Source: an uncultured Nitrospina sp. (lineage in GTDB: Bacteria; Nitrospinota; Nitrospinia; Nitrospinales; VA-1). Taken from it: a stretch of DNA of 42,080 nt. The stretch is taken from positions 1 through 42,080 of the forward strand of contig CAZMXD010000001.1 in assembly GCA_964570185.1 (NCBI GenBank). The letters run 5' to 3'. Shown here one piece after another: positions 14,950 through 33,709 of this stretch (position 1 is its first letter; each line of letters opens with the position of its first letter). The notes beneath the pieces were generated by a model. The model saw only the letters and a program-made list of their open reading frames with translations, was not told where the DNA came from and searched no databases. A program made the translations under genes and the position numbers.

Positions 14950-16087
14950 ATGAATATGGTAAATGGAATGCAAGAAGATCACAGTAAACTTTTCAAAGAT
15001 ATCGAAGCTAGAATAGACCAACTCAGGGGGTTTCTTTGACGTTGAAAATAAATTAAAAACCCTTGAATCTTTGGATGAAATAATTGCCCAGCCAGGATTT
15101 TGGGAAGACAATCAAGAAGCGCAGAAGTCTCTTCAAAGCAGGTCTGCGTTGCAACGCCAGGTTGAAATTTGGAAAAACCTTCAAAAAGCCAGTGATGACA
15201 TTGGCGCCATGCTCGAATTATCGGAAGAGGAAAATGACCCCTCCTTTCTAGTTGAAGTTCAGTCCTCTTTAAAAGATCTTGATGAGCAGGTTGCTGGAGC
15301 CGAGTTTAAGGCACTCCTTTCAGAAAAAAATGATTTTAATAACGCTTTCTTAGCTATTAACTCTGGTGCGGGGGGTACAGAGTCTCAGGACTGGGCTGAT
15401 ATGTTGCTTAGGATGTACCTGCGATGGGGGGATCGAAATGGATTTAAAACAGAAGTTCTTGATACCCAGTATGGGGATGAAGCAGGGATAAAAAGTGCCA
15501 CCGTGCAATTCTCTGGTGATTATGCTTTTGGATATTTGAAAACGGAAATTGGGGTGCATCGTCTGGTAAGAATCTCTCCTTTTGATTCCAATAAGAGGAG
15601 GCATACTTCTTTTGCTTCGGTTTTTGTTTATCCCGAGGCGGATGAAGATATTCAAGTGGGAGTGAAAGAAGAAGATCTGAAAATTGATGTCTACCGCGCT
15701 TCGGGCCCCGGTGGTCAGGGCGTCAATACAACTGATTCAGCAGTTCGTTTGACCCATGTACCAACAGGTATCGTGGTTCAATGTCAGAATGAAAGATCAC
15801 AACATAAAAACAAAGCTTCGGCAATCAAGGTTTTGAAAGCTCGTTTATATGAAATAGAGCAGGAAAAGCAGGACGAGGAAAAAAAAGAAATGGAAAAACA
15901 AAAAAAGAAGATTGAATGGGGAAGCCAGATTCGTTCTTATGTTCTTCATCCTTATCGGCTTGTTAAAGACCTGAGAACCAATGTGGAAACCGGCAATGTA
16001 GATGCGGTCTTGGATGGCGACTTAGATATTTTTATCCAAGCGTTTCTGCGTTTTCTTGGTTCGGAACGGGGTGGTGCAATAAAATGA
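14950..16087 (+). CDS. prfB: peptide chain release factor 2, requires programmed +1 frameshift at 15034..15040
   Basis: Frame-0 leader MNMVNGMQEDHSKLFKDIEARIDQLRGFL ends at TGA 15037..15039. The +1 frame continues DVENKLKTLESLDEIIAQPGFWED into the tracked ORF 15071..16087. That ORF contains SPF (RISPFDS) and GGQ (SGPGGQGVNTTDSAVRLTH). The first ATG (14950) is taken as the start; 14956 and 14968 are alternatives. Confidence 0.93.
15025..15040 (+). promoter_or_regulatory. RF2 autoregulatory +1 frameshift site (internal SD AGGGGG, slippery CTT, TGA C)
   Basis: The sequence AGG GGG TTT CTT TGA C is nearly identical to the E. coli prfB site AGG GGG TAT CTT TGA C. Confidence 0.9.
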
Positions 16088-17094
16088 AGTCCGGCCTGCG
16101 TGCAGCGTTAGTCAACGATCCGTTTGGTGACCCTGGTCTTTTAGTCCGGTTCTTGTTCCAAAAACGATCAATATTGTTTGATTTGGGAGATATTTCGCCA
16201 TTAAGCCATGGAGAGCTTTTGAAAGTTTCACATGTTTTTGTCAGCCACACACATATTGATCACTTTATTGGTTTTGATCGCTTGCTAAGAGCGGTTTTCG
16301 GGAGTGCTAAAACGATTACCTTTTTTGGCCCTGAAAACTTTATTAAAAATGTGGAAGGGAAGCTAGCTGGTTTTACTTGGAACCTGGTGGATCGTTACGA
16401 AGAATCTTTGACCCTTAAGGTGGTCGAGTTGAGAGAGGGGAAGTTGCTAAAAGCCACCTTCAAGGCCATCGATAAGTTCAAGCGAATTGATGAACAAGAA
16501 GTTGAATTTACCAATGGGATAATTCTAAATGACCCGTTATTTACAGTGACTGCTGCGATTTTAGAACACAGGGTTCCCTGTTTGGGATTTTCCTTGCAGG
16601 AAAAACTTCATGTAAATATTAATAAAGACCGATTAAATACTATGCAGATTGTTGAGGGTTCGTGGCTAAATGAGTTGAAAAAATGTGTTTTGGAAGGAAA
16701 TTTGGATTCCCATAAAATAGATGTACCCTTCAAGATAAATGGAAAATCAATAAGCGAGCAATTAACTTTGGGTGAGTTGAAGCAAAAATTGATGGATATA
16801 TCACCGGGCCAAAAAATCGGATACGTTGTGGACACGGTCTATAATGAACAAAATAAAAGAAAAATTATAGATTTGGTGCAATCCGCTGATATATTTTTTT
16901 GCGAATCCCCATTTCTTTCCGACGAAGAGGCACGCGGACAGGACAGGTTTCACCTTACCTCCCATCAGGCTGGAACCTTGGCGCGAGAAGCCTGCGCCAA
17001 ACAACTTCGGGTATTTCACTTTTCGCGTAAGCATATACTTCAGCGAGAACGTTTTTATAAAGAAGCAGAAACGGCTTTTCGGGAAAATACTTAA
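16084..17094 (+). CDS. MBL-fold metallo-hydrolase (RNase Z-like)
   Basis: 336-aa ORF. The HxHxDH motif appears in VFVSHTHIDHFIGFD, with later D/H ligand positions (FHLTSHQ). ATGA start/stop overlap with prfB at 16084..16087. Confidence 0.8.
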   Translation: MKSGLRAALVNDPFGDPGLLVRFLFQKRSILFDLGDISPLSHGELLKVSHVFVSHTHIDHFIGFDRLLRAVFGSAKTITFFGPENFIKNVEGKLAGFTWNLVDRYEESLTLKVVELREGKLLKATFKAIDKFKRIDEQEVEFTNGIILNDPLFTVTAAILEHRVPCLGFSLQEKLHVNINKDRLNTMQIVEGSWLNELKKCVLEGNLDSHKIDVPFKINGKSISEQLTLGELKQKLMDISPGQKIGYVVDTVYNEQNKRKIIDLVQSADIFFCESPFLSDEEARGQDRFHLTSHQAGTLAREACAKQLRVFHFSRKHILQRERFYKEAETAFRENT

Positions 17095-17909: not shown

Positions 17910-19439
17910 ATGATTTGGATTGATTTTGCCTTATTGTGGTATGCCTCCATTCGCACGTGTCTTAATCGGTGTGAATGGGCACTCAAGTGGGAAAAGCTGG
18001 CATTGGCTTTTCTATTTGCCTTGGGATTGAAAAGCTTGCTTTTATTTTTTCTGATTCGTTTGGGCATCAAGCCCAGTGTAAGTATCCAGGTAAGTTTCAG
18101 CATATTGATTTTGATTTTTACCTTGTTCCTTCCCGCAAGAGCAAGTTTCGAAGAAGAACCAACTGGGGGCAGGGTATTGTTCTCGCTGACTCTGCTATGT
18201 GTGGGCGGGCTTTTTATATTCAGCATGATCAACGCATGGTTTTTCCCGATAACGCAGTCGGATGCTATTTGGTATCACATTAGGGGCATGACTTTTTTTA
18301 ACGAGGTCCGCTTTGATTCGGATTGGGTGGTCCCGCAACTTAAACAATACTCTCCTTTCATTCCTCTCTTATTTGCTTATCTCTTTTCGTTTGAGGTGGG
18401 TTTTTTAAAGATAATTTTTCCTCTTTTATACCTTTGTCTCAATATTATTTTTTACTCGCGTGTTTTGTCTTTAACTGAAAACAAAAAAATGGCCTGTCTG
18501 TTTACAATGATCTTGGCAACAACCCCTTATTTTTGGTGGCATGGCGTGCTGCCGTTTCTTGATATGACGACAGCAGTTTTTTACTCAACTGGAATTTTGT
18601 ACTGGTATTTTTGGCTTCAAACTGAAATATTGGACAAAGTCCCTCTCCTGGTATCAACCAAAGCATTTGGCGAGGGTTCATCATTAAATAAAAATAGTTC
18701 CTATGCCATGGTTAGCGGGCTTTTATTGGGATTGGCTGCCTGGACCCGCATAGAATTTCTTTTGTATGATTTGATTCCGATTTTCTTGACAATCTTTGCT
18801 TATAACCGATATCAAAATGGAAATACAAATCCAAAATCTTTAGGAGTATTTTTTATAGCCCTGCTTTTCTTTCCTTCTATTTGGTTTTTAAATTTATTCA
18901 CATTTGAGATGGATCTCTTGAGTCAAACCGAAATGGTGAGCGGAGTTTGTATATTCTTGTGGCTCCTCGTTTTAGGCCTAAAGTTTAGAAAGTGGAAAAT
19001 TTCTGAACCAAGTGTGCTTTTGGCATTATTTGTTTCAGTTATAGGATATTTTGTTTTGCTTTTAATAGTGGGAATCGGGCCTGTTCCAGTATGGAAAAAA
19101 ATTATAATTAGTTTGTATAGAACCTCAACGGTCCATATTTTTTATTTATTTACGCCCGCTCTTGCTTTTTATCTGTTTTTTGAAAAGCTTAAAGATTTGT
19201 CCGAAGTAAAAAAGATTTTAGGTTGTTTTCTGATTTTATTTCTTTTCACCCATTTGGCGATATTTACATACGCCAATCCCAAATGGTCAACCCTCGGCGA
19301 GTTTATTTATGCGACATTTATCCAACCTGGAAATAGCGTTAACCTGTCTGATACGCGTGGGATGATGTCTTTCTATCCTGTTTTCATATTTTTTATTTCA
19401 TCACTATCTTTTGTAAGGCAGAGGCTAATTAATGGTTAA
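17910..19439 (+). CDS. polytopic membrane protein, GT-C (ArnT/PMT-like) glycosyltransferase candidate
   Basis: 509-aa ORF with at least 11 hydrophobic segments. An acidic/aromatic first loop (ITQSDAIWYHIRGM) is placed as in GT-C enzymes. No soluble domain. The family call is tentative. Confidence 0.6.
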   Translation: MIWIDFALLWYASIRTCLNRCEWALKWEKLALAFLFALGLKSLLLFFLIRLGIKPSVSIQVSFSILILIFTLFLPARASFEEEPTGGRVLFSLTLLCVGGLFIFSMINAWFFPITQSDAIWYHIRGMTFFNEVRFDSDWVVPQLKQYSPFIPLLFAYLFSFEVGFLKIIFPLLYLCLNIIFYSRVLSLTENKKMACLFTMILATTPYFWWHGVLPFLDMTTAVFYSTGILYWYFWLQTEILDKVPLLVSTKAFGEGSSLNKNSSYAMVSGLLLGLAAWTRIEFLLYDLIPIFLTIFAYNRYQNGNTNPKSLGVFFIALLFFPSIWFLNLFTFEMDLLSQTEMVSGVCIFLWLLVLGLKFRKWKISEPSVLLALFVSVIGYFVLLLIVGIGPVPVWKKIIISLYRTSTVHIFYLFTPALAFYLFFEKLKDLSEVKKILGCFLILFLFTHLAIFTYANPKWSTLGEFIYATFIQPGNSVNLSDTRGMMSFYPVFIFFISSLSFVRQRLING

Positions 19440-19911
19440 ACAAAATTGGGCTGAAAACATAATTTTAGGAATTATAGCGTTAAATATATTTGTTTTGGCT
19501 TATGTGTTTTTAATCCCACGAGCACAATTTATTATTGATCATTGGGAATGGGATTCTGAGGCTCTAATGGAAATTCAGGGAGCTATGGATATACCAAATC
19601 AGTACTCGAAAACCTATAAAGTCGCCAATCATATCCGGAATTCTACAAATAAAGATTCAGTAATTTTAATGCCCGCCGATAATTGGGAATTTGGTTCAAA
19701 CAGATCGGTTGTGATTCAACGATTGTATCCACGAGAGGTATATTTTATGGGCGACGAAAGTTTTTATAATCAAAAGAATAATGCTGACTTCGAAAAAATG
19801 GTCTATGCAATAGCCTTTCCTGATGATGGTGCTAATTTATGTTTTGAGAAAAAGTATGAAAAATTGGGTGAAACGGGTTTTGTGATTTGCAGGAGTAGCA
19901 TTCCTAATTAA
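19432..19911 (+). CDS. hypothetical protein with a single N-terminal TM anchor
   Basis: 159-aa ORF. Its start overlaps the preceding gene by 8 nt (ATGGTTAA). One TM (IILGIIALNIFVLAYVFLI) is followed by a soluble domain. It may act as the periplasmic partner of the upstream GT-C-like protein. Confidence 0.55.
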   Translation: MVKQNWAENIILGIIALNIFVLAYVFLIPRAQFIIDHWEWDSEALMEIQGAMDIPNQYSKTYKVANHIRNSTNKDSVILMPADNWEFGSNRSVVIQRLYPREVYFMGDESFYNQKNNADFEKMVYAIAFPDDGANLCFEKKYEKLGETGFVICRSSIPN

Positions 19912-28050: not shown

Positions 28051-28814
28051 TCTTTTTGGCCTGTTATCAAATACTGCCCTCCAAGAGGTAACCAGCCCAG
28101 ATAAGGATCCAAAACGTTTAAGGCTGATAAAAACTTTGGAAAGAACGTTGTATAAATGATCCGGATATTTGACAAGGCAACCTGGTTAAAGTGGTTCTTC
28201 AGGGTTTTCGAGGGAATTAATACCGCGTCTTTATCAAACGGACAATCTTTCACAATTTTTTGTGTGACAGGATTAAGTGGATTATGTTCCCAAATGACTA
28301 ATTTCCCTCCCGGATTTAACAGCGAACAAAGTTTATTGATAATCTTTACATGGTCGGGATGAGGGATATGGTGGAATACGCCTGACGAGAATATCAGATC
28401 ATAATGCAAACGTCCCCATTCGGGAGAATCGTATTCCTGGAAATTCGTATCAATCGGAAACCGCGAACGAGCTTTCTCAATAGAGTCTTTAGAGAGATCT
28501 GCTCCTGTATAAACTGCGTTTGGGAAGAATTTTTTAAGGTGTCCAAACAAATTCCCCACCCCACACCCAAAGTCTAACAGTTGAAAAGGTTTTTGTGACA
28601 GGCTCGGAAAAAGAGTTTTTAATTTGTGGAGTTTTGCGGAAACAAGATTGTCTGTATCGTAACCCGTATGGCGTATAGCCTGATTTAGTAATTCATTATA
28701 ATTTTTAGAATAGGAGTCGAATGATTCGGGCATACGGTATTTATGATAAAGATTGGTATAAACTCTTATATTGGCCCATGATTTTTCCCCAGTCAAATCT
28801 GTTTTTAATTTCAA
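28047..28814 (-). CDS. class I SAM-dependent methyltransferase
   Basis: 255-aa ORF. Motif I LLDFGCGVGN, followed by GADLS and PGGKLVIWE. An alternative start at ATG 28733 (MPESF...) would remove the 74-nt overlap with the GT4 gene. Its stop overlaps the convergent SDR stop in a TTAA. Confidence 0.8.
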   Translation of the reverse strand: MKLKTDLTGEKSWANIRVYTNLYHKYRMPESFDSYSKNYNELLNQAIRHTGYDTDNLVSAKLHKLKTLFPSLSQKPFQLLDFGCGVGNLFGHLKKFFPNAVYTGADLSKDSIEKARSRFPIDTNFQEYDSPEWGRLHYDLIFSSGVFHHIPHPDHVKIINKLCSLLNPGGKLVIWEHNPLNPVTQKIVKDCPFDKDAVLIPSKTLKNHFNQVALSNIRIIYTTFFPKFLSALNVLDPYLGWLPLGGQYLITGQKD

Positions 28815-29906
28815 CCTGAATTTTGCGTCCCATTTCCAACCTTAAGTTAGAGTCCGTTAAAGATTCAATTCTATCTTTTATTTCTTCGGTTTTTCCAGTT
28901 ACATGATAACCAGTTTCGCCGTCAATAACTATGTCTTTTGCAATCCCTACCGGAGTGGCAATCAATGGCAAGCCATGGGCTGCGGCTTCAATAAGCGGTT
29001 GTCCAAAATTTTCGTACAAGGATGGGTATACAAAAATGTTTGAAGATTTATAAAGGGTTTTTAATTCTGCCTGAGTTTTTTTTCCTGTAAACGTTACATT
29101 GCTATTAAGATTTAATTGATTTGTGAGCAGTTTTAATTCTTCAAGGTATCCGCCACGTGTAACACTGCTGGTTTTTTCTTCTCCGCCAGCAATATTGAGA
29201 TGAAAAGGGATGGTCAGTTGGCTTGCCGCTTGAAGCAAGAGTTCGATTCGTCTGACACGGGCGATGCGACCTGCGAATAAAATTTGTAATTTTTCGGACG
29301 TATTTTGTTCCTTTTTAATTTCTTCAACCTCAATCCCCATGGGAATGATGTGAACCTTTTCTTTTGCGATTCCAAATTCCAAGGCATCTTCATACTCTAA
29401 TTTTGAAGACACAACAATTGCCCGCGCTCTTTTAGCGGAGGTCTTTAAGGTGAGGATGTCATAAAGGTGATAGGGCAACCTTTGTTTCAGGGATGGAAGA
29501 TAATTTTTAAAACCAAGGAGCGAACCATGAGTACTTAAAACGAAAGGCTTGTTTTTAATCAGCGCAAAAAAAAACCGCTATCCGTCTGAAAATTTCGGTA
29601 GTTATGACTGTGAAGGATATCGAAGTTTTTAAAATGAGCGAGCATTCCCGCACTTACCAAGTATCGCATTATTTTTAATTGCGAAGCAAAACGGTGGACA
29701 GAGACGTTATCGAATTTTTCCTGTTTGGGAAGCATGGAGGATACATCTGAGTAAGTGGTATACACGGGAGAAAAAATCCCATGTTTTTCCAGTCGGTTTG
29801 ATATCTGAAATGCCTGATTAACGGGGCCACAAATATAAGGTAAAAAACTTTCTATGGTACGTAAAACCTTCAAAATTGCTCCATATTTGAGGAGTCGGAC
29901 TGCCAA
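28741..29906 (-). pseudogene. GT4 (GT-B fold) glycosyltransferase interrupted by a frameshift in a 9-nt homopolymer (29566..29574)
   Basis: ORF 29559..29906 encodes the N-terminal Glyco_trans_4-like half (KVLRTIESFLPY...HSHNYR). ORF 28741..29478 encodes the C-terminal Glycos_transf_1 half (FAGRI...PSLYENFGQPLIEAAAHGLPLIAT). The two frames overlap at the T9 (sense) tract. The likely true start is TTG 29873, which forms a TTGA overlap with the upstream stop. Confidence 0.75.
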
Positions 29907-30275: not shown

Positions 30276-31094
30276 TTACCTCTTGGATACGTTTCTTAGC
30301 ACGGTTACAAAGATTGATAGAAACATTTTGAAAATATAGTAGATAGTCTTATGTCCATGGTGCATTGATACTTTATCAGGACTGGCATGCATGGTGACGG
30401 GAATTTCTTTGACCTTAAGCCCGTGACGGTGCATCAGAATAATAAAGTCGGCGTCTGGATAGTCTGGCGGGTAATGATCACTCGCGGCAAAATGAATGGC
30501 TTTTCCTTTAAGCGCTTGGAATCCCGAAGTCGGGTCGGTAACTTTTTGTCCGCAAAATAAGGACGCGATTTTACCAAAAATAAAAATCCCTGCGTATCTT
30601 GCAAATGATGTTTTGTAAGAATTATTGGACAAATATCTAGAACCAATCACCACATCAATTCCATCTTTTTGTACTTCTTTGATAAGTTCTTTTATGTTTT
30701 TTGGGTCGTGCTGTCCGTCCGAATCCATTTGAATAACAAGAGAGAAATTTTTCTTGGCCGCATATTTGAACCCTGTTTGTAATGCCACACCATAGCCTGA
30801 ATTGTAAGGCAGGCTGATTACGTTGGCGCCATGACTTCGTGCTACACTTTCAGTGTTATCTTCAGAGCCATCATTAATAACTAGAATTGGAATTCCTGGT
30901 ACTTTTTTTTGGATAGACTCTAAAACCGCTCCGATATTTTTTTCTTCGTTGTAAGCGGGGATAATTATTAAGGTTTTGGGATGGCCTTTCAAAGGACCCT
31001 TGATGAAAGTGGTTTCTAATTCATCGTTTTCCAGTATGACTACCGGATCCTGTTTTAACGATGCTTGTGGTGCCTGGTAACGGAGGGTTTTCAT
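30276..31094 (-). CDS. GT2 glycosyltransferase
   Basis: 272-aa ORF. LIIIPAYNEEKNIGAVLESI...LVINDGSEDNT...QMDSDGQHD (DxD). Confidence 0.85.
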   Translation of the reverse strand: MKTLRYQAPQASLKQDPVVILENDELETTFIKGPLKGHPKTLIIIPAYNEEKNIGAVLESIQKKVPGIPILVINDGSEDNTESVARSHGANVISLPYNSGYGVALQTGFKYAAKKNFSLVIQMDSDGQHDPKNIKELIKEVQKDGIDVVIGSRYLSNNSYKTSFARYAGIFIFGKIASLFCGQKVTDPTSGFQALKGKAIHFAASDHYPPDYPDADFIILMHRHGLKVKEIPVTMHASPDKVSMHHGHKTIYYIFKMFLSIFVTVLRNVSKR

Positions 31095-31434
31095 TCAAAC
31101 AGGGTTTTAAATTGTTAAAAACTACAACCAATCATCTTAAAGAGGGCGAAACAATTGTAATTTAAAAGTAAAGAGTGATTTCAGCCTTTAAAATTTTGAA
31201 TCTACGAGTATTAAAACGGTTATTTTTTGAATAAACTTGACCCTTATTCAGCCCCTATTTTATAGGAAATATAAGCTATTGTAAACAATAGCCTTATGGA
31301 CATCGGGGGTGAGTGAGGGGTGGGGGGCGCTAAAATCCTGCAGAAACCGTGTAATTAAAAGCCCGTATGGAATGCGTATTATTAAATTATCTGATCCTGG
31401 TAATTTTCTGGCTCCTCCTGTCCAGAGTTTTACT

Positions 31435-31857
31435 TTATATTTGTTTATGGCCTGCTTTTTTCCGCAATTTATGCGTTGTTTTTGTCAAACCTTCTATTTC
31501 TCCGCCCTCCTGCTTTAATTGACCCAAAGTGTCTCTAAGCCGACTGGTCAAGGTTTTTATGAGGGTGACAATAAACTTGGGGTTATGTTCACAAAGAAAA
31601 GAAAAGCGCGATTCATCCACTACCGTTAACTTCGAGTTTTCCAATGCAATCGCTGTTGCAGACCGGGGATACTTATCGATAAGTCCCATTTCTCCAAATA
31701 AATCAGACTTTCTTAAAGTTCCGACGAGAGACCTTTTTCCAAAGTTGTTTTCCTTGTAAATTCCGATCTTCCCAGATTCAATGATATACGCATATTTGCT
31801 TCTTTCCCCTTGCTGAAAAATAATTTCTTCTTTTACAAATGTTTTGGTTGTTTCCAT
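31435..31857 (-). CDS. stand-alone cyclic-nucleotide-binding domain protein (copy 4)
   Basis: 140-aa ORF. FQQGERSKYAYIIESGKIGIY...LFGEMGLIDKYPRSATAIALE is the CAP/PKA-type beta-barrel with phosphate-binding cassette. Only a hinge helix and a short basic tail follow. Confidence 0.85.
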   Translation of the reverse strand: METTKTFVKEEIIFQQGERSKYAYIIESGKIGIYKENNFGKRSLVGTLRKSDLFGEMGLIDKYPRSATAIALENSKLTVVDESRFSFLCEHNPKFIVTLIKTLTSRLRDTLGQLKQEGGEIEGLTKTTHKLRKKAGHKQI

Positions 31858-31870
31858 AATTCGTAGCCGT

Positions 31871-32254
31871 TTAATGTTTTAGATTCAACAAAGGCCTTCT
31901 GTAATATTCTTGGAGTAAGTTCGTAGTATTCCTTAACCTATGAGATAAAACTTTCAGTAAAGGTCTTAACGCGAATGGGTCATTTTTTAATAGGTAATCA
32001 AACGTTTTTTTGCTGATTACCGAGACCTGGGTGTCTTCTAAAGCAATGGCGGTTGCCGTTCTCACCTTGTTGTCTATAAGCCCCATTTCACCGAAAATAT
32101 CATCTTTCTTAAGAGTGGCGAGCAATTTGCGTTTATCATTCTGTTTAGTTTCGGAAATAATTCCCACTTTACCAAAATCGATCATATAAGCACTGTCGCC
32201 GTAGGTTCCTTCATTAAAAATGAAGTCATATTTTTTATAATTTTTCTTTTTCAT
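31871..32254 (-). CDS. stand-alone cyclic-nucleotide-binding domain protein (copy 3)
   Basis: 127-aa ORF. FNEGTYGDSAYMIDFGKVGI...IFGEMGLIDNKVRTATAIALE. No other domain. Confidence 0.85.
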   Translation of the reverse strand: MKKKNYKKYDFIFNEGTYGDSAYMIDFGKVGIISETKQNDKRKLLATLKKDDIFGEMGLIDNKVRTATAIALEDTQVSVISKKTFDYLLKNDPFALRPLLKVLSHRLRNTTNLLQEYYRRPLLNLKH

Positions 32255-32270
32255 TGTTTGACTCGTCGCT

Positions 32271-32702
32271 TTAATAAGTCGTTAATTTTGCATTAATCGG
32301 TTCAATATGCTTTTTCATTAGCTGTTCTTTTGTTGTGGAACTCGTTCCCTGTTTCAAGAAACCCATTGTTTCTCTTAACCGGCTGGTCAAAACTTTTAAT
32401 ATAGGTAGTAAGGCTTTTGGATTTTTCTGTACAAGAGTATCAAAATTATTTCGATGTATTATGTACACCAAAGAATCTTCGAGAGCCCTGGCAGTCGCTG
32501 ATCGAGGTTGTCCGTCGATCAAACCCATTTCACCAAAAATCTCGTTTTCCTTTAATTTACCAATGACCTTTTCCCCTTCCGTTGTTTCTTGAAGTATTTC
32601 AACGGCCCCAGAGCCGACAATGAAGGCGCAATCGCTGGAGCTACCCTGACGGAAAATAGTTTCACCCTTTTTAAAGTTTTTGCTTAAATTCATTGTCATC
32701 AC
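32271..32702 (-). CDS. stand-alone cyclic-nucleotide-binding domain protein (copy 2)
   Basis: The tracked ORF is 143 aa from GTG 32702. ATG 32693 (MNLSKNF...) is the likelier start: it sits 8 nt after GAGG and is homologous to the copy-1 start. IFGEMGLIDGQPRSATARALE. Confidence 0.85.
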   Translation of the reverse strand: MMTMNLSKNFKKGETIFRQGSSSDCAFIVGSGAVEILQETTEGEKVIGKLKENEIFGEMGLIDGQPRSATARALEDSLVYIIHRNNFDTLVQKNPKALLPILKVLTSRLRETMGFLKQGTSSTTKEQLMKKHIEPINAKLTTY

Positions 32703-33009
32703 CTCATAAAGTCGTTTTTACAATGTCCAAATTATTCCGAGTTATTACATACATGACAGATTCTTCGAGGGCCTTGGCGGTTGTTGATCGTGGTTGCCCA
32801 TCGAATAAACCCGTTTCACCAAAAATCTCGTTTTCCTTTAATTTGCCAATGACCTTTTCCCCTTCTTTTGTTTCTTTAACTATTTCCACTGATCCCGAGT
32901 CAATAATGAAGGCACAGTCGCTGAGGCTTCCCTGAAGAAAAATCGTTTCACCCTTTTTAAAAACTTTGCGTAAATTCATACTAATTACCTCATTAACTCG
33001 TTTTTGTAC
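32436..33009. repeat. two-copy tandem duplication, period 286 bp (5' leader plus the first 88 or so codons of the cNMP-binding gene)
   Basis: ATG 32979 and ATG 32693 are 286 nt apart. The leaders GTACAAAAACGAGTTAATGAGGTAATTAGT-ATGAATTTA (33009..32971) and GTAAAAACGACTTTATGAGGTGATGACA-ATGAATTTA (32721..32685) align. Within the CDS there are perfect runs, for example tttcaccaaaaatctcgttttcctttaattt and ccaatgaccttttccccttc. Confidence 0.75.
32704..32979 (-). CDS. C-terminally truncated cyclic-nucleotide-binding domain paralog (copy 1), product of a partial tandem duplication
   Basis: 91-aa ORF, about 75-80 percent identical by eye to the first 88 residues of copy 2. It ends in the duplicated 5' leader of copy 2 (TGA inside TTATGAGG). 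The cassette is altered to FGETGLFDGQPRSTTA and the hinge helix is missing. May be a pseudogene. Confidence 0.65.
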   Translation of the reverse strand: MNLRKVFKKGETIFLQGSLSDCAFIIDSGSVEIVKETKEGEKVIGKLKENEIFGETGLFDGQPRSTTAKALEESVMYVITRNNLDIVKTTL

Positions 33010-33511
33010 TTTTCAACTATAAATAAGCAAATTTCAGGCCAAAAATAGTATGAAATTTAAACAATCTTCTAAGGGATTATAAATAAAAGATTTAAAGGCA
33101 AAAAAAATTAATTTATTTTGTAAATAGAATTATTTTTTCGAAAAATATTAACAATAAATAACTATTAATGTATAAATTTTCATAAATTAATGGCTTGATT
33201 AAGGAGAAGGAGGTCGATTTTTTAATTTGGGCAATTAGCCGAATGAGTTTATAAAAGCTTTTTTATCAGAAAGTATAGAAATTGGCGGGAATTCTGGAAA
33301 ATAATACTGGTTCGCAGAGGCTGGTGGAACCAATTTTGGCTTTTCATGGGGATATACTGGAAATCTCGTCTTTTTGTTTAAAGGATCAACTTCGGAATCG
33401 TTTCTACATCCTTAAAAAGCGTAAAGATTTTCATACTTTAAATTTAACTGCTACAATTATCTTGGGAAGTTTCTAAGGACCAATGGATTGGAATAACAAA
33501 GGAATTAAATT

Positions 33512-33709
33512 ATGAACGATAAAGTGTTAATCATTTCTATTTTAGGCCTTTTGGGAATCGGTTTTATAGCAGTTCTTTTTATTGCGATCCCCTGGTTTAC
33601 TAATTACCTGTTACCCAATTGGAGAGATACTTTAGTAGATAGTGGGATTGTAATGGTAGCAATTGGACTGTTTGTATATGGTTTCTATATGAATACTCGA
33701 ATGCATTGA
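33512..33709 (+). CDS. small two-TM membrane protein (paralog A)
   Basis: 65-aa ORF with AAGGA 8 nt upstream of the ATG. Two hydrophobic helices are separated by IPWFTNYLLPNWRD. It has the same length and motif layout as the next ORF. Confidence 0.6.
   Translation: MNDKVLIISILGLLGIGFIAVLFIAIPWFTNYLLPNWRDTLVDSGIVMVAIGLFVYGFYMNTRMH

Follow-up and report, generated by a model that had tools for sequence, protein, structure and literature searches.

A sigma-54-type element precedes a conserved array of stand-alone cyclic-nucleotide-binding domain genes in Nitrospinaceae

Introduction

Bacterial signalling by cyclic AMP (cAMP) and cyclic GMP (cGMP) is understood almost wholly via CRP-type regulators and a few fused sensors; Clr of S. 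meliloti, a member of the CRP/FNR family, responds to both nucleotides. Databases hold many proteins with a cyclic-nucleotide-binding (CNB) domain and no output domain, and to our knowledge their role is essentially unknown. Likewise, we know of no description of a diffusible-adaptor mode of bacterial cAMP/cGMP signalling. The sensor of Bd1971 binds cAMP and cGMP at 0.8-22 μM and forms a dimer through its C-helix (PMC6717892). CbpA of P. aeruginosa is cited as a second, non-CRP cAMP effector (PMC11139211). In this study, a 42,080-nt stretch of DNA from an uncultured Nitrospina sp. (contig CAZMXD010000001.1 of assembly GCA_964570185.1) was analysed; this whole stretch is hereafter called the window. 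It contains an array of four genes, all on the minus strand (32979..31435), which an initial annotation made from the sequence alone had described as small cyclic nucleotide monophosphate (cNMP)-binding proteins without an output module. We describe the domain content, conservation, probable promoter and genomic setting of this array, cnbA'-cnbA-cnbB-cnbC, and weigh the explanations for its function.

Materials and methods

Open reading frames (ORFs) were searched with Pfam, NCBIfam and PADLOC models, and structures were compared using an AlphaFold (AF2) model and Foldseek. Relatives were collected by a scan with one genome per species, which gave 80 loci; genes in the loci (designated L001 and so on) were identified by hmmsearch on ORFs and by tblastn with the neighbour genes of the window. 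The probes used for nucleotide cyclases were loose, and their hits were confirmed by Pfam.

Results

Four genes with a single CNB domain each

The ORF list of the window reproduces exactly the four ORFs of the initial annotation. The genes are as follows:

cnbA', 32704..32979, minus strand: 91 aa; PF00027 E 3.7e-23, profile positions 2-82 of 89
cnbA (orthogroup A), 32271..32693, minus strand: 140 aa; PF00027 E 3.3e-26
cnbB (orthogroup B), 31871..32254, minus strand: 127 aa; PF00027 E 1.4e-20; cassette FGEMGLIDNKVRTATA
cnbC (orthogroup C), 31435..31857, minus strand: 140 aa; PF00027 E 4.7e-22; cassette FGEMGLIDKYPRSATA

The gaps between them are 1-16 nt. The second ORF is open from a GTG codon in the ORF list (32271..32702, 143 aa). 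Orthologs and a duplicated ribosome-binding site (RBS) back the ATG at 32693 (140 aa) as the start of cnbA, and gene callers choose the ATG at 32699 (142 aa).

PF00027 (cNMP_binding) is the sole significant Pfam domain in all four ORFs. Its scores of 73-92 bits, against a cutoff of 27.5, are far beyond chance. Each ORF also carries the phosphate-binding cassette FGEMGLIDxxPRSATA or a variant of it, and the cassettes quoted in the initial annotation had been read correctly. Searches with Pfam and NCBIfam found no helix-turn-helix (HTH), transmembrane (TM), TIR or kinase domain in the four ORFs. NCBIfam CRP/FNR models matched the array proteins at 16-52 bits (CRP models at 32-52 bits against a cutoff of 266), with cutoffs of 180-300 for the set, and over the N-terminal part of the profiles only. 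The description of each ORF as a bare, single CNB domain therefore stands, as does the C-terminal helix in three of the four: cnbA, cnbB and cnbC are full length, and the 91-aa ORF lacks the helix. The GC content of the array is similar to that of the surrounding DNA, and an Rfam scan of 30900..33700 gave no match.

Structure and ligand site

The AF2 model of cnbA (140 aa) has a mean pLDDT of 79. Its beta-strands lie within residues 4-80, with the cassette helix at 55-60, and are followed by two helices (81-90 and 92-117) and a disordered tail (121-140). Because barrel, helices and tail fill the model, cnbA has no room for a hidden output domain. The check for a cryptic output domain that the initial annotation had proposed thus yielded none in Pfam, NCBIfam or the cnbA model. 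The C-terminal tails are not conserved among orthologs. The N-terminal helical bundle (N3A motif) that PKA, Epac and HCN-type domains typically have is absent from cnbA, in which the Pfam match and the first beta-strand start at residues 4-8; the Bd1971 sensor likewise has no such bundle (PMC6717892). The missing bundle marks a CNB subtype and is no bar to membership of the CNB superfamily.

Foldseek returned 624 matches at E ≤ 0.001, and the top 50 listed were all CNB domains. The CNB domain of Bd1971 (39% identity) ranked best, together with the N-terminal domains of CRP, GlxR and MtbCRP; 3GYD, a stand-alone CNB protein, was matched as well. In the gapless alignment of cnbA with Bd1971, E55, M56, R64, S65, R105 and L106 correspond to Glu58, Met59, Arg67, Ser68, Arg108 and Leu109, and all six are identical. 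These residues of Bd1971 make the ribose, phosphate and base-capping contacts (PMC6717892). Proper alignment, which the initial annotation had named as the point where ligand contacts might prove lost, thus finds them kept. Across the family the six residues are invariant or nearly so (E55 and R64 invariant, S65 nearly), and the cassette Glu and Arg are retained in all orthogroups. The base-capping pair R105/L106 sits on the lid helix, which is present in the three full-length proteins and missing from the 91-aa copy. Conservation of the C-helix equals that of the binding pocket. The cnb proteins are functional proteins with an intact cNMP pocket, and the nucleotide that they would bind is predicted from the pocket residues.

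Family, paralog groups and selection

Homologs place the source of the window in Nitrospinota, family Nitrospinaceae. Among 259 homologs, the best 120 have without exception a length of 113-157 aa, PF00027 as their one domain and no fusion to an output domain. The stand-alone state is therefore the norm of the family and not a local truncation, and it is ancestral in this lineage. A profile search of 1.84 billion representatives gave 95,584 matches, of which the best 150 are mostly long multi-repeat CNB proteins with additive domain scores; this search shows only how common the CNB domain is.

Syntenic arrays occur across Nitrospinaceae, which settles in the positive whether the array is conserved in relatives. 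The locus type found in the window (type 1) is shared by L001-L012, L022, L026, L029 and L035, and by L013, in which the small TM genes described below are not detectable. Its gene order is SurA, NAD-epimerase, CruF-like, two opposite-strand genes for 65-aa TM proteins, the mini-CNB array, GT2, DUF2304 and glycosyltransferases, and the arrays comprise 1-4 genes in about 17 Nitrospinota species. By clustering, the array genes fall into four orthogroups, A, B, C and D, each with group-specific conserved residues. Most species have A-B-C-D. D (cnbD) has been lost from the window, L001 and L002, and tblastn found no remnant of it in the window. Orthogroups B and C are each conserved in 13 loci. 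Between the window and L001/L002, dN/dS is about 0.2 for A, 0.04-0.07 for B and 0.11-0.13 for C. The array proteins are real and under purifying selection.

A second locus type (type 2) in the same genomes holds 1-3 further mini-CNB genes with spacers of about 70-280 nt (L014, L015, L018-L021, L023-L025 and L031; e.g. L020:5728-12378). On its upstream side lie a HATPase_c+DUF4325 (STAS-like) gene, an SNase-like gene and an NtrC-type sigma-54 response regulator; a U32 peptidase gene lies downstream, and a radical-SAM gene, HpnH-like by eye from its sequence, also flanks the array. Since group D is closest to the type-2 genes, D may be the ancestral copy, from which A-C would have arisen by tandem duplication. 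Two deep-branching Nitrospinota have simpler versions of the type-1 locus: one with a single 65-aa TM gene and a single D-like CNB gene behind a sigma-54 element (L022:9285-10330), and one with two CNB genes and no detected TM gene (L013:10001-11165).

Neighbouring mini-CNB genes are fused in L035 (B-C, 275 aa), and a Lachnospiraceae relative, L065, has a fused two-CNB protein of 323 aa. The two fusions hint that adjacent paralogs associate. Two apparent fusions to other domains were rejected. The CNB+HTH_8 ORF of L027 (9986-10726) includes the C-terminus of the NtrC-type gene next to it, as comparison with L031 indicates, and is a probable chimera of a single-cell assembly. The CNB+bactofilin ORF of L032 (444-1262), from a metagenome-assembled genome (MAG), equals cnbA of L009 over its first 90 residues and then diverges, and is a probable assembly chimera. 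Such ORFs in public assemblies would mislead domain-fusion inference.

The partial copy cnbA'

cnbA' is a partial tandem duplicate of cnbA, to which it is 73% identical. The duplication spans from about 25 nt before the ATG, RBS included, to about codon 88. The whole beta-barrel and the phosphate-binding cassette were thus kept, and the C-helix was not, which leaves the copy without a lid. The nearest species, L001 and L002, do not have cnbA'. In several Tara Oceans samples, a total of 17 contigs encode the identical protein with the gene order unchanged, and omega on the cnbA' branch is about 0.19 (three-point branch lengths derived from the dN/dS comparison). These two observations make it unlike a fresh pseudogene. 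That it was a decaying pseudogene had been suggested by the substitutions M->T, I->F and A->T at sites invariant elsewhere in the family, and was dropped on the strength of the 17 identical contig copies and the branch omega. The partial-duplicate nature of this ORF had been missed by the initial annotation, as had the sigma-54 element and the losses of cnbD and of the LOG-family gene described below.

The sigma-54-type element and the operon borders

Three features of the DNA around the genes bear on their transcription:

33026..33041, minus strand: sigma-54-type -24/-12 element TGGCCTGAAATTTGCT, starting 62 nt upstream of the first array ATG
33168..33186, minus strand: candidate upstream activator site TTTATGAAAATTTATACAT, an AT-rich imperfect palindrome about 130 nt upstream of the -24 element
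31273..31330, minus strand: probable but weakly marked operon end, a C-rich tract (31330..31305) followed by a weak terminator-like hairpin (31294..31273)

The element at 33041..33026 fits the -24/-12 consensus TGGCAC-N5-TTGCW with exact spacing (GG at -24, GC at -12). The pattern TGGYMYN5TTGCW has one match in the window, against 0.32 expected by chance. At orthologous loci the element precedes the first array gene by 61-68 nt (by 94-117 nt in four loci), and in an alignment of 13 upstream regions, otherwise poorly conserved, it is the sole invariant block. Within 473 kb of Nitrospinota loci, searched on both strands, the strict motif has 17 matches, every one of them directly before a type-1 array, and all 17 type-1 loci have it. 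These include arrays that start with B (L026), with the B-C fusion (L035) or with D as the only gene (L022). The strict motif was found neither in array-less relatives nor at the type-2 genes. Because the conserved element is exclusive to the fronts of type-1 arrays, the array is very probably sigma-54 dependent and requires an enhancer-binding protein; the four genes very probably form a single operon driven by this promoter. NtrC-type activators (REC-Sigma54_activat-HTH_8) are encoded in Nitrospinaceae, beside type-2 arrays, and the activator adjoining the type-2 array could drive the type-1 promoter.

The candidate activator site belongs to a block (...TTTATACAT) that is partly conserved among the 13 orthologous upstream regions. 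L001 and L002 have a perfect palindrome there, ATGTATAA-N4-TTATACAT. The palindrome is a tentative candidate for an enhancer-binding site, as its context is AT-rich. At the other end of the array, the hairpin comes from a terminator scan whose match count was not above shuffle expectation, so that the operon end is weakly placed. C-rich, G-poor tracts (e.g. GCGCCCCCCACCCCTCACTCACCCCC) were seen after cnbC in the window (31305..31330) and after the LOG-family gene in L003-L007; they may be Rho-utilisation sites at the ends of transcription units.

Nucleotide cyclases and CNB pairs in other lineages

The initial annotation had noticed no nucleotide cyclase or phosphodiesterase (PDE) in the 42 kb, and this is borne out by Pfam scans covering about 37 ORFs there, with no member of either group of families found. 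A class III cyclase probe gave no match in the 473 kb of Nitrospinota loci, and the same probe finds cyclases of Clostridia. The sole loosely related fold in the window is that of an unassigned 336-aa metallo-beta-lactamase-fold protein (16084..17094), which is 14 kb from the array with nothing linking the two; some cNMP phosphodiesterases have this fold. Two adjacent ORFs, 17910..19439 (509 aa) and 19432..19911 (159 aa), matched no Pfam or PADLOC model.

The probe matched seven loci of gut Clostridia, Lachnospiraceae, Atopobiaceae and Coriobacteriales (L037, L038, L040, L047, L058, L065 and L074). They hold two CNB-only genes of 159-183 aa (fused, 323 aa, in L065), followed by a PAS-Guanylate_cyc gene, as at L038:9977-13196; the arrangement was confirmed by Pfam for L038 and L040. 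A xylose-isomerase-like TIM-barrel gene sometimes lies between the CNB pair and the cyclase. Given these loci, tandem CNB genes without an output also occur outside Nitrospinaceae, and at least one such lineage has CNB-only pairs that are genetically tied to cNMP synthesis. No description of such a module of a CNB pair and a PAS-cyclase was found in the literature. Nitrospinaceae themselves encode multi-domain CNB proteins, among them MscS-CNB (486 aa) and Pyr_redox-2xCNB-Fer4 (779 aa). The fusion of CNB domains to MscS-type channels and to an Fe-S flavoprotein suggests that cNMP signalling exists in this family.

Neighbouring genes

The twin genes for 65-aa proteins with two TM segments, here called TM65, are divergent from the array in the window. 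Most type-1 loci have a 340-aa LOG-family gene (PF03641 Lysine_decarbox, SLOG cluster 4) between TM65 and the array, namely L003 (3739-4761), L004-L006, L008, L010, L012, L026, L029 and L035; the array-less loci L087 and L088 carry the LOG gene as well. The gene is encoded on the array strand and precedes the sigma-54 element, and a separate promoter belongs to the array. The window, L001 and L002 have lost the LOG gene; the deletion corresponds to the gap 32980..33511 of the window, and tblastn detected no remnant of the gene in the window. The divergent pairing of TM65 and array in the window is thus a result of the loss of the LOG gene. In the distant Nitrospinaceae L087 and L088, the TM gene adjoins CruF and is divergent to LOG, and there is no CNB gene; in L088, GT2 directly follows LOG. 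Because these two loci keep the backbone without an array, the array is an insertion into an older TM65-LOG-GT2 backbone.

TM65 is independent of the array, and no TM65 gene was found at type-2 array loci. A homolog search for TM65 gave 121 proteins, all from Nitrospinota and without annotation, so that its co-occurrence with other genes offers no independent test outside the lineage. The TM65 proteins have no match in Pfam or PADLOC. LOG enzymes act on nucleotide monophosphates, and a tie of LOG to TM65 or to nucleotide signalling is conceivable. Against PADLOC, the CNB ORFs match positions ~35-162, the CNB part, of Pycsar effector models of ~300 residues, with E values down to 3.6e-14 for the TIR-effector profiles, and one 374-position PycC model (PDLC00734). 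The latter was matched by all four CNB ORFs with E values of 4.6e-09 to 3.3e-04. These ORFs contain no Guanylate_cyc domain, and the match, which lies in the N-terminal profile region also covered in the effector models, is read as CNB-domain overlap.

Farther downstream, a GT4-type glycosyltransferase is encoded in two pieces on the minus strand, a 115-aa N-terminal ORF without a Pfam match (29559..29906) and a 245-aa ORF with Glycos_transf_1 (28741..29478). The pieces are in different frames with an 80-nt gap, and tblastn shows the same two-piece layout in every related locus. The split therefore reflects two real genes or else a conserved frameshift and is not a sequencing error.

Discussion

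The explanation that we favour, and to which we give an even chance, is that the cnb proteins are cAMP/cGMP receptors that dimerise through the C-helix and relay nucleotide binding to unlinked partners; the ligand, the dimerisation and the output in trans are what we infer in it. The operon would supply three full-length receptors (cnbA, cnbB and cnbC), each with a CAP/PKA-type barrel, cassette, hinge helix and long amphipathic C-helix, together with one lid-less partial copy (cnbA'). An enhancer-binding protein would switch on expression of the array. The products would then bind cAMP and/or cGMP with micromolar affinity and form C-helix dimers by analogy with CRP and the Bd1971 sensor, and adjacent paralogs may pair as heterodimers. 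Nucleotide binding would reposition the hinge and the C-helix and thereby alter binding to partner proteins encoded elsewhere. The proteins would thus resemble single-domain response regulators and single-domain PilZ proteins as free-standing adaptors. A more specific form of this explanation is possible, though doubtful: sigma-54-inducible, hetero-dimerising free cNMP receptors would pass the cAMP/cGMP signal on to several unlinked targets as a set of diffusible adaptors, and the set would consist of the four ancient paralog groups of this locus plus up to three genes at the second locus. The paralogs might differ in nucleotide preference. cnbB carries an Arg-Thr pair, and such a pair favours cGMP in PKG and CNG channels.

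Several observations weigh against the receptor explanation. No cyclase or PDE was found within 10 kb of about 40 Nitrospinota arrays, and no partner gene co-occurs with both array types. Array content varies (A'ABC, ABC, ABCD, BCD, BC-fusion+D and D only), which argues against an obligate complex of fixed composition. The fusions in L035 and L065 are one MAG observation each and could be sequencing errors. The promoter, finally, is assigned from motif and conservation and not from a mapped transcription start.

The main rival to the receptor explanation, raised as a sponge by the initial annotation, is an inducible cyclic-nucleotide buffer or sink, in which proteins without partners would lower free cNMP or slow its dynamics once the sigma-54 promoter fires. 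It would account for the missing output domain, for the several copies per operon plus a second locus, for a copy number that varies from 1 to 4 among species as if dosage outweighed identity, and for the retention under selection of a copy without a lid. We nevertheless consider it unlikely, since a pure buffer would not need four orthogroups that persist with group-specific residues, nor a C-helix conserved as strongly as the binding pocket; the same two observations lead us to favour specific interactions over mere buffering. The small proteins could also pair through the C-helix with multi-domain CNB channels, enzymes or regulators encoded elsewhere and alter their response, much as a microProtein does. 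Nitrospinaceae do encode MscS-CNB and Pyr_redox-2xCNB-Fer4, and CRP and Bd1971 regularly dimerise through this helix. Such modulation is improbable, however, as these multi-domain proteins are distant from the mini-CNB family (E 1e-11 to 1e-19, versus 1e-40 to 1e-66 within it) and their genes have no genetic linkage to the arrays. The selection data effectively refute the idea that the proteins are functionless, degenerating remnants of CRP/FNR regulators after loss of the DNA-binding domain. The array is changing in this lineage, with cnbD and LOG lost and a truncated copy gained, but dN/dS is 0.04-0.2, the residues of pocket and helix do not vary, 259 short homologs exist, and the promoter is conserved.

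Two further explanations, both raised by the initial annotation, draw on the neighbouring genes. In one, the array regulates the adjacent envelope-glycan genes, i.e. GT2, DUF2304 and the downstream same-strand glycosyltransferase cluster. In all type-1 loci, GT2-DUF2304 comes after the array and shares its strand, with just a weak terminator between array and GT2. Synteny is the sole support for this proposal, and the whole 20-kb region is syntenic, so that adjacency is little informative; L088 has the same LOG-GT2 neighbourhood without a CNB gene, the flanks of type-2 arrays are unrelated (NtrC-type regulator, peptidase U32 and radical-SAM gene), and the array proteins have no DNA-binding domain. 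We regard glycan-gene regulation as quite improbable. In the other, a cyclic pyrimidine is the ligand of the CNB proteins, which gate the twin TM65 proteins as a split Pycsar-like defence effector. The matches to the CNB part of the TIR-effector profiles and the adjacency of TM65 in the window and its syntenic relatives agree with this idea, which is disfavoured and very improbable all the same. TM65 occurs without arrays in L087 and L088 and is absent at type-2 loci, the LOG gene and a separate promoter intervene in most genomes, TM65 itself has no PADLOC or Pfam match, and no cyclase is nearby. Moreover, the setting is a vertically conserved core-genome synteny of unremarkable GC content, not a patchy defence island.

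The domain, the ligand pocket and the likely dimer mode of the cnb proteins are textbook, and the array is not a new kind of molecular system. What is new here is the conserved sigma-54-type element ahead of the array, as read from its motif and position. Our literature searches, outside which many subscription papers lie, found nothing on cNMP signalling in Nitrospina or on CNB-only operons. The array is a clean, conserved and strongly selected case of output-less CNB proteins in ecologically dominant marine nitrite oxidisers. Its promoter type, its paralog groups and its natural variants (the lid-less copy, the fused pair and arrays of 1-4 genes) are experimental handles for studies of binding, oligomerisation and partner finding. 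If true, the adaptor set would be the cyclic-mononucleotide counterpart of single-domain response regulators and PilZ adaptors, and the operons of CNB pairs and PAS-cyclases in gut Firmicutes suggest a broader theme.

Comparison with known systems

PKA regulatory subunits give strong matches at the domain level, and the fusions in L035 and L065 recall their tandem CNB-A/CNB-B. PKA has a docking domain, an inhibitor sequence, the N3A motif and tandem CNBs, whereas the window genes have one CNB each and none of these segments. Pycsar effectors share CNB-level homology with the cnb proteins, but in Pycsar the CNB is fused to TIR or TM modules and accompanied by the PycC cyclase, and the array has no such fusion, no adjacent cyclase and no defence-island context. 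The CNB pairs of Clostridia, Lachnospiraceae and Coriobacteriia likewise have PF00027 alone and are about 42% identical to cnbA over the domain; they differ from the Nitrospinaceae arrays in having a linked cyclase and a longer helical C-terminal extension.

Two described proteins are similar in having a CNB domain and no recognised output. Mfla_1926 of Methylobacillus flagellatus (PDB 3GYD) has a chain of 180-187 residues and is only 25% identical. CbpA is a cAMP-binding CNB protein with no recognised catalytic or DNA-binding output; it has an extra degenerate domain and is encoded by a single gene. No description presents either protein as sigma-54 controlled or as part of an operon of several paralogs.

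The CRP/FNR regulators (E. coli CAP, M. tuberculosis CRP, C. glutamicum GlxR and S. meliloti Clr) have the barrel, cassette and C-helix in common with the cnb proteins, and Clr is the best sequence match for the half comprising cassette and C-helix. With their C-terminal winged-helix DNA-binding domain they are about 210-250 aa long, whereas the full-length cnb proteins, which have no such domain, are 127-140 aa. The closest solved relative remains the N-terminal sensor of Bd1971, a Bdellovibrio EAL phosphodiesterase (PDB 6HQ2-6HQ7), which also starts directly with the barrel. It shares with cnbA the same six contacts and the same long C-helix, the dimer interface in Bd1971. The sensor of Bd1971 is covalently joined to its EAL output, whereas the cnb proteins end after the C-helix and a disordered tail.

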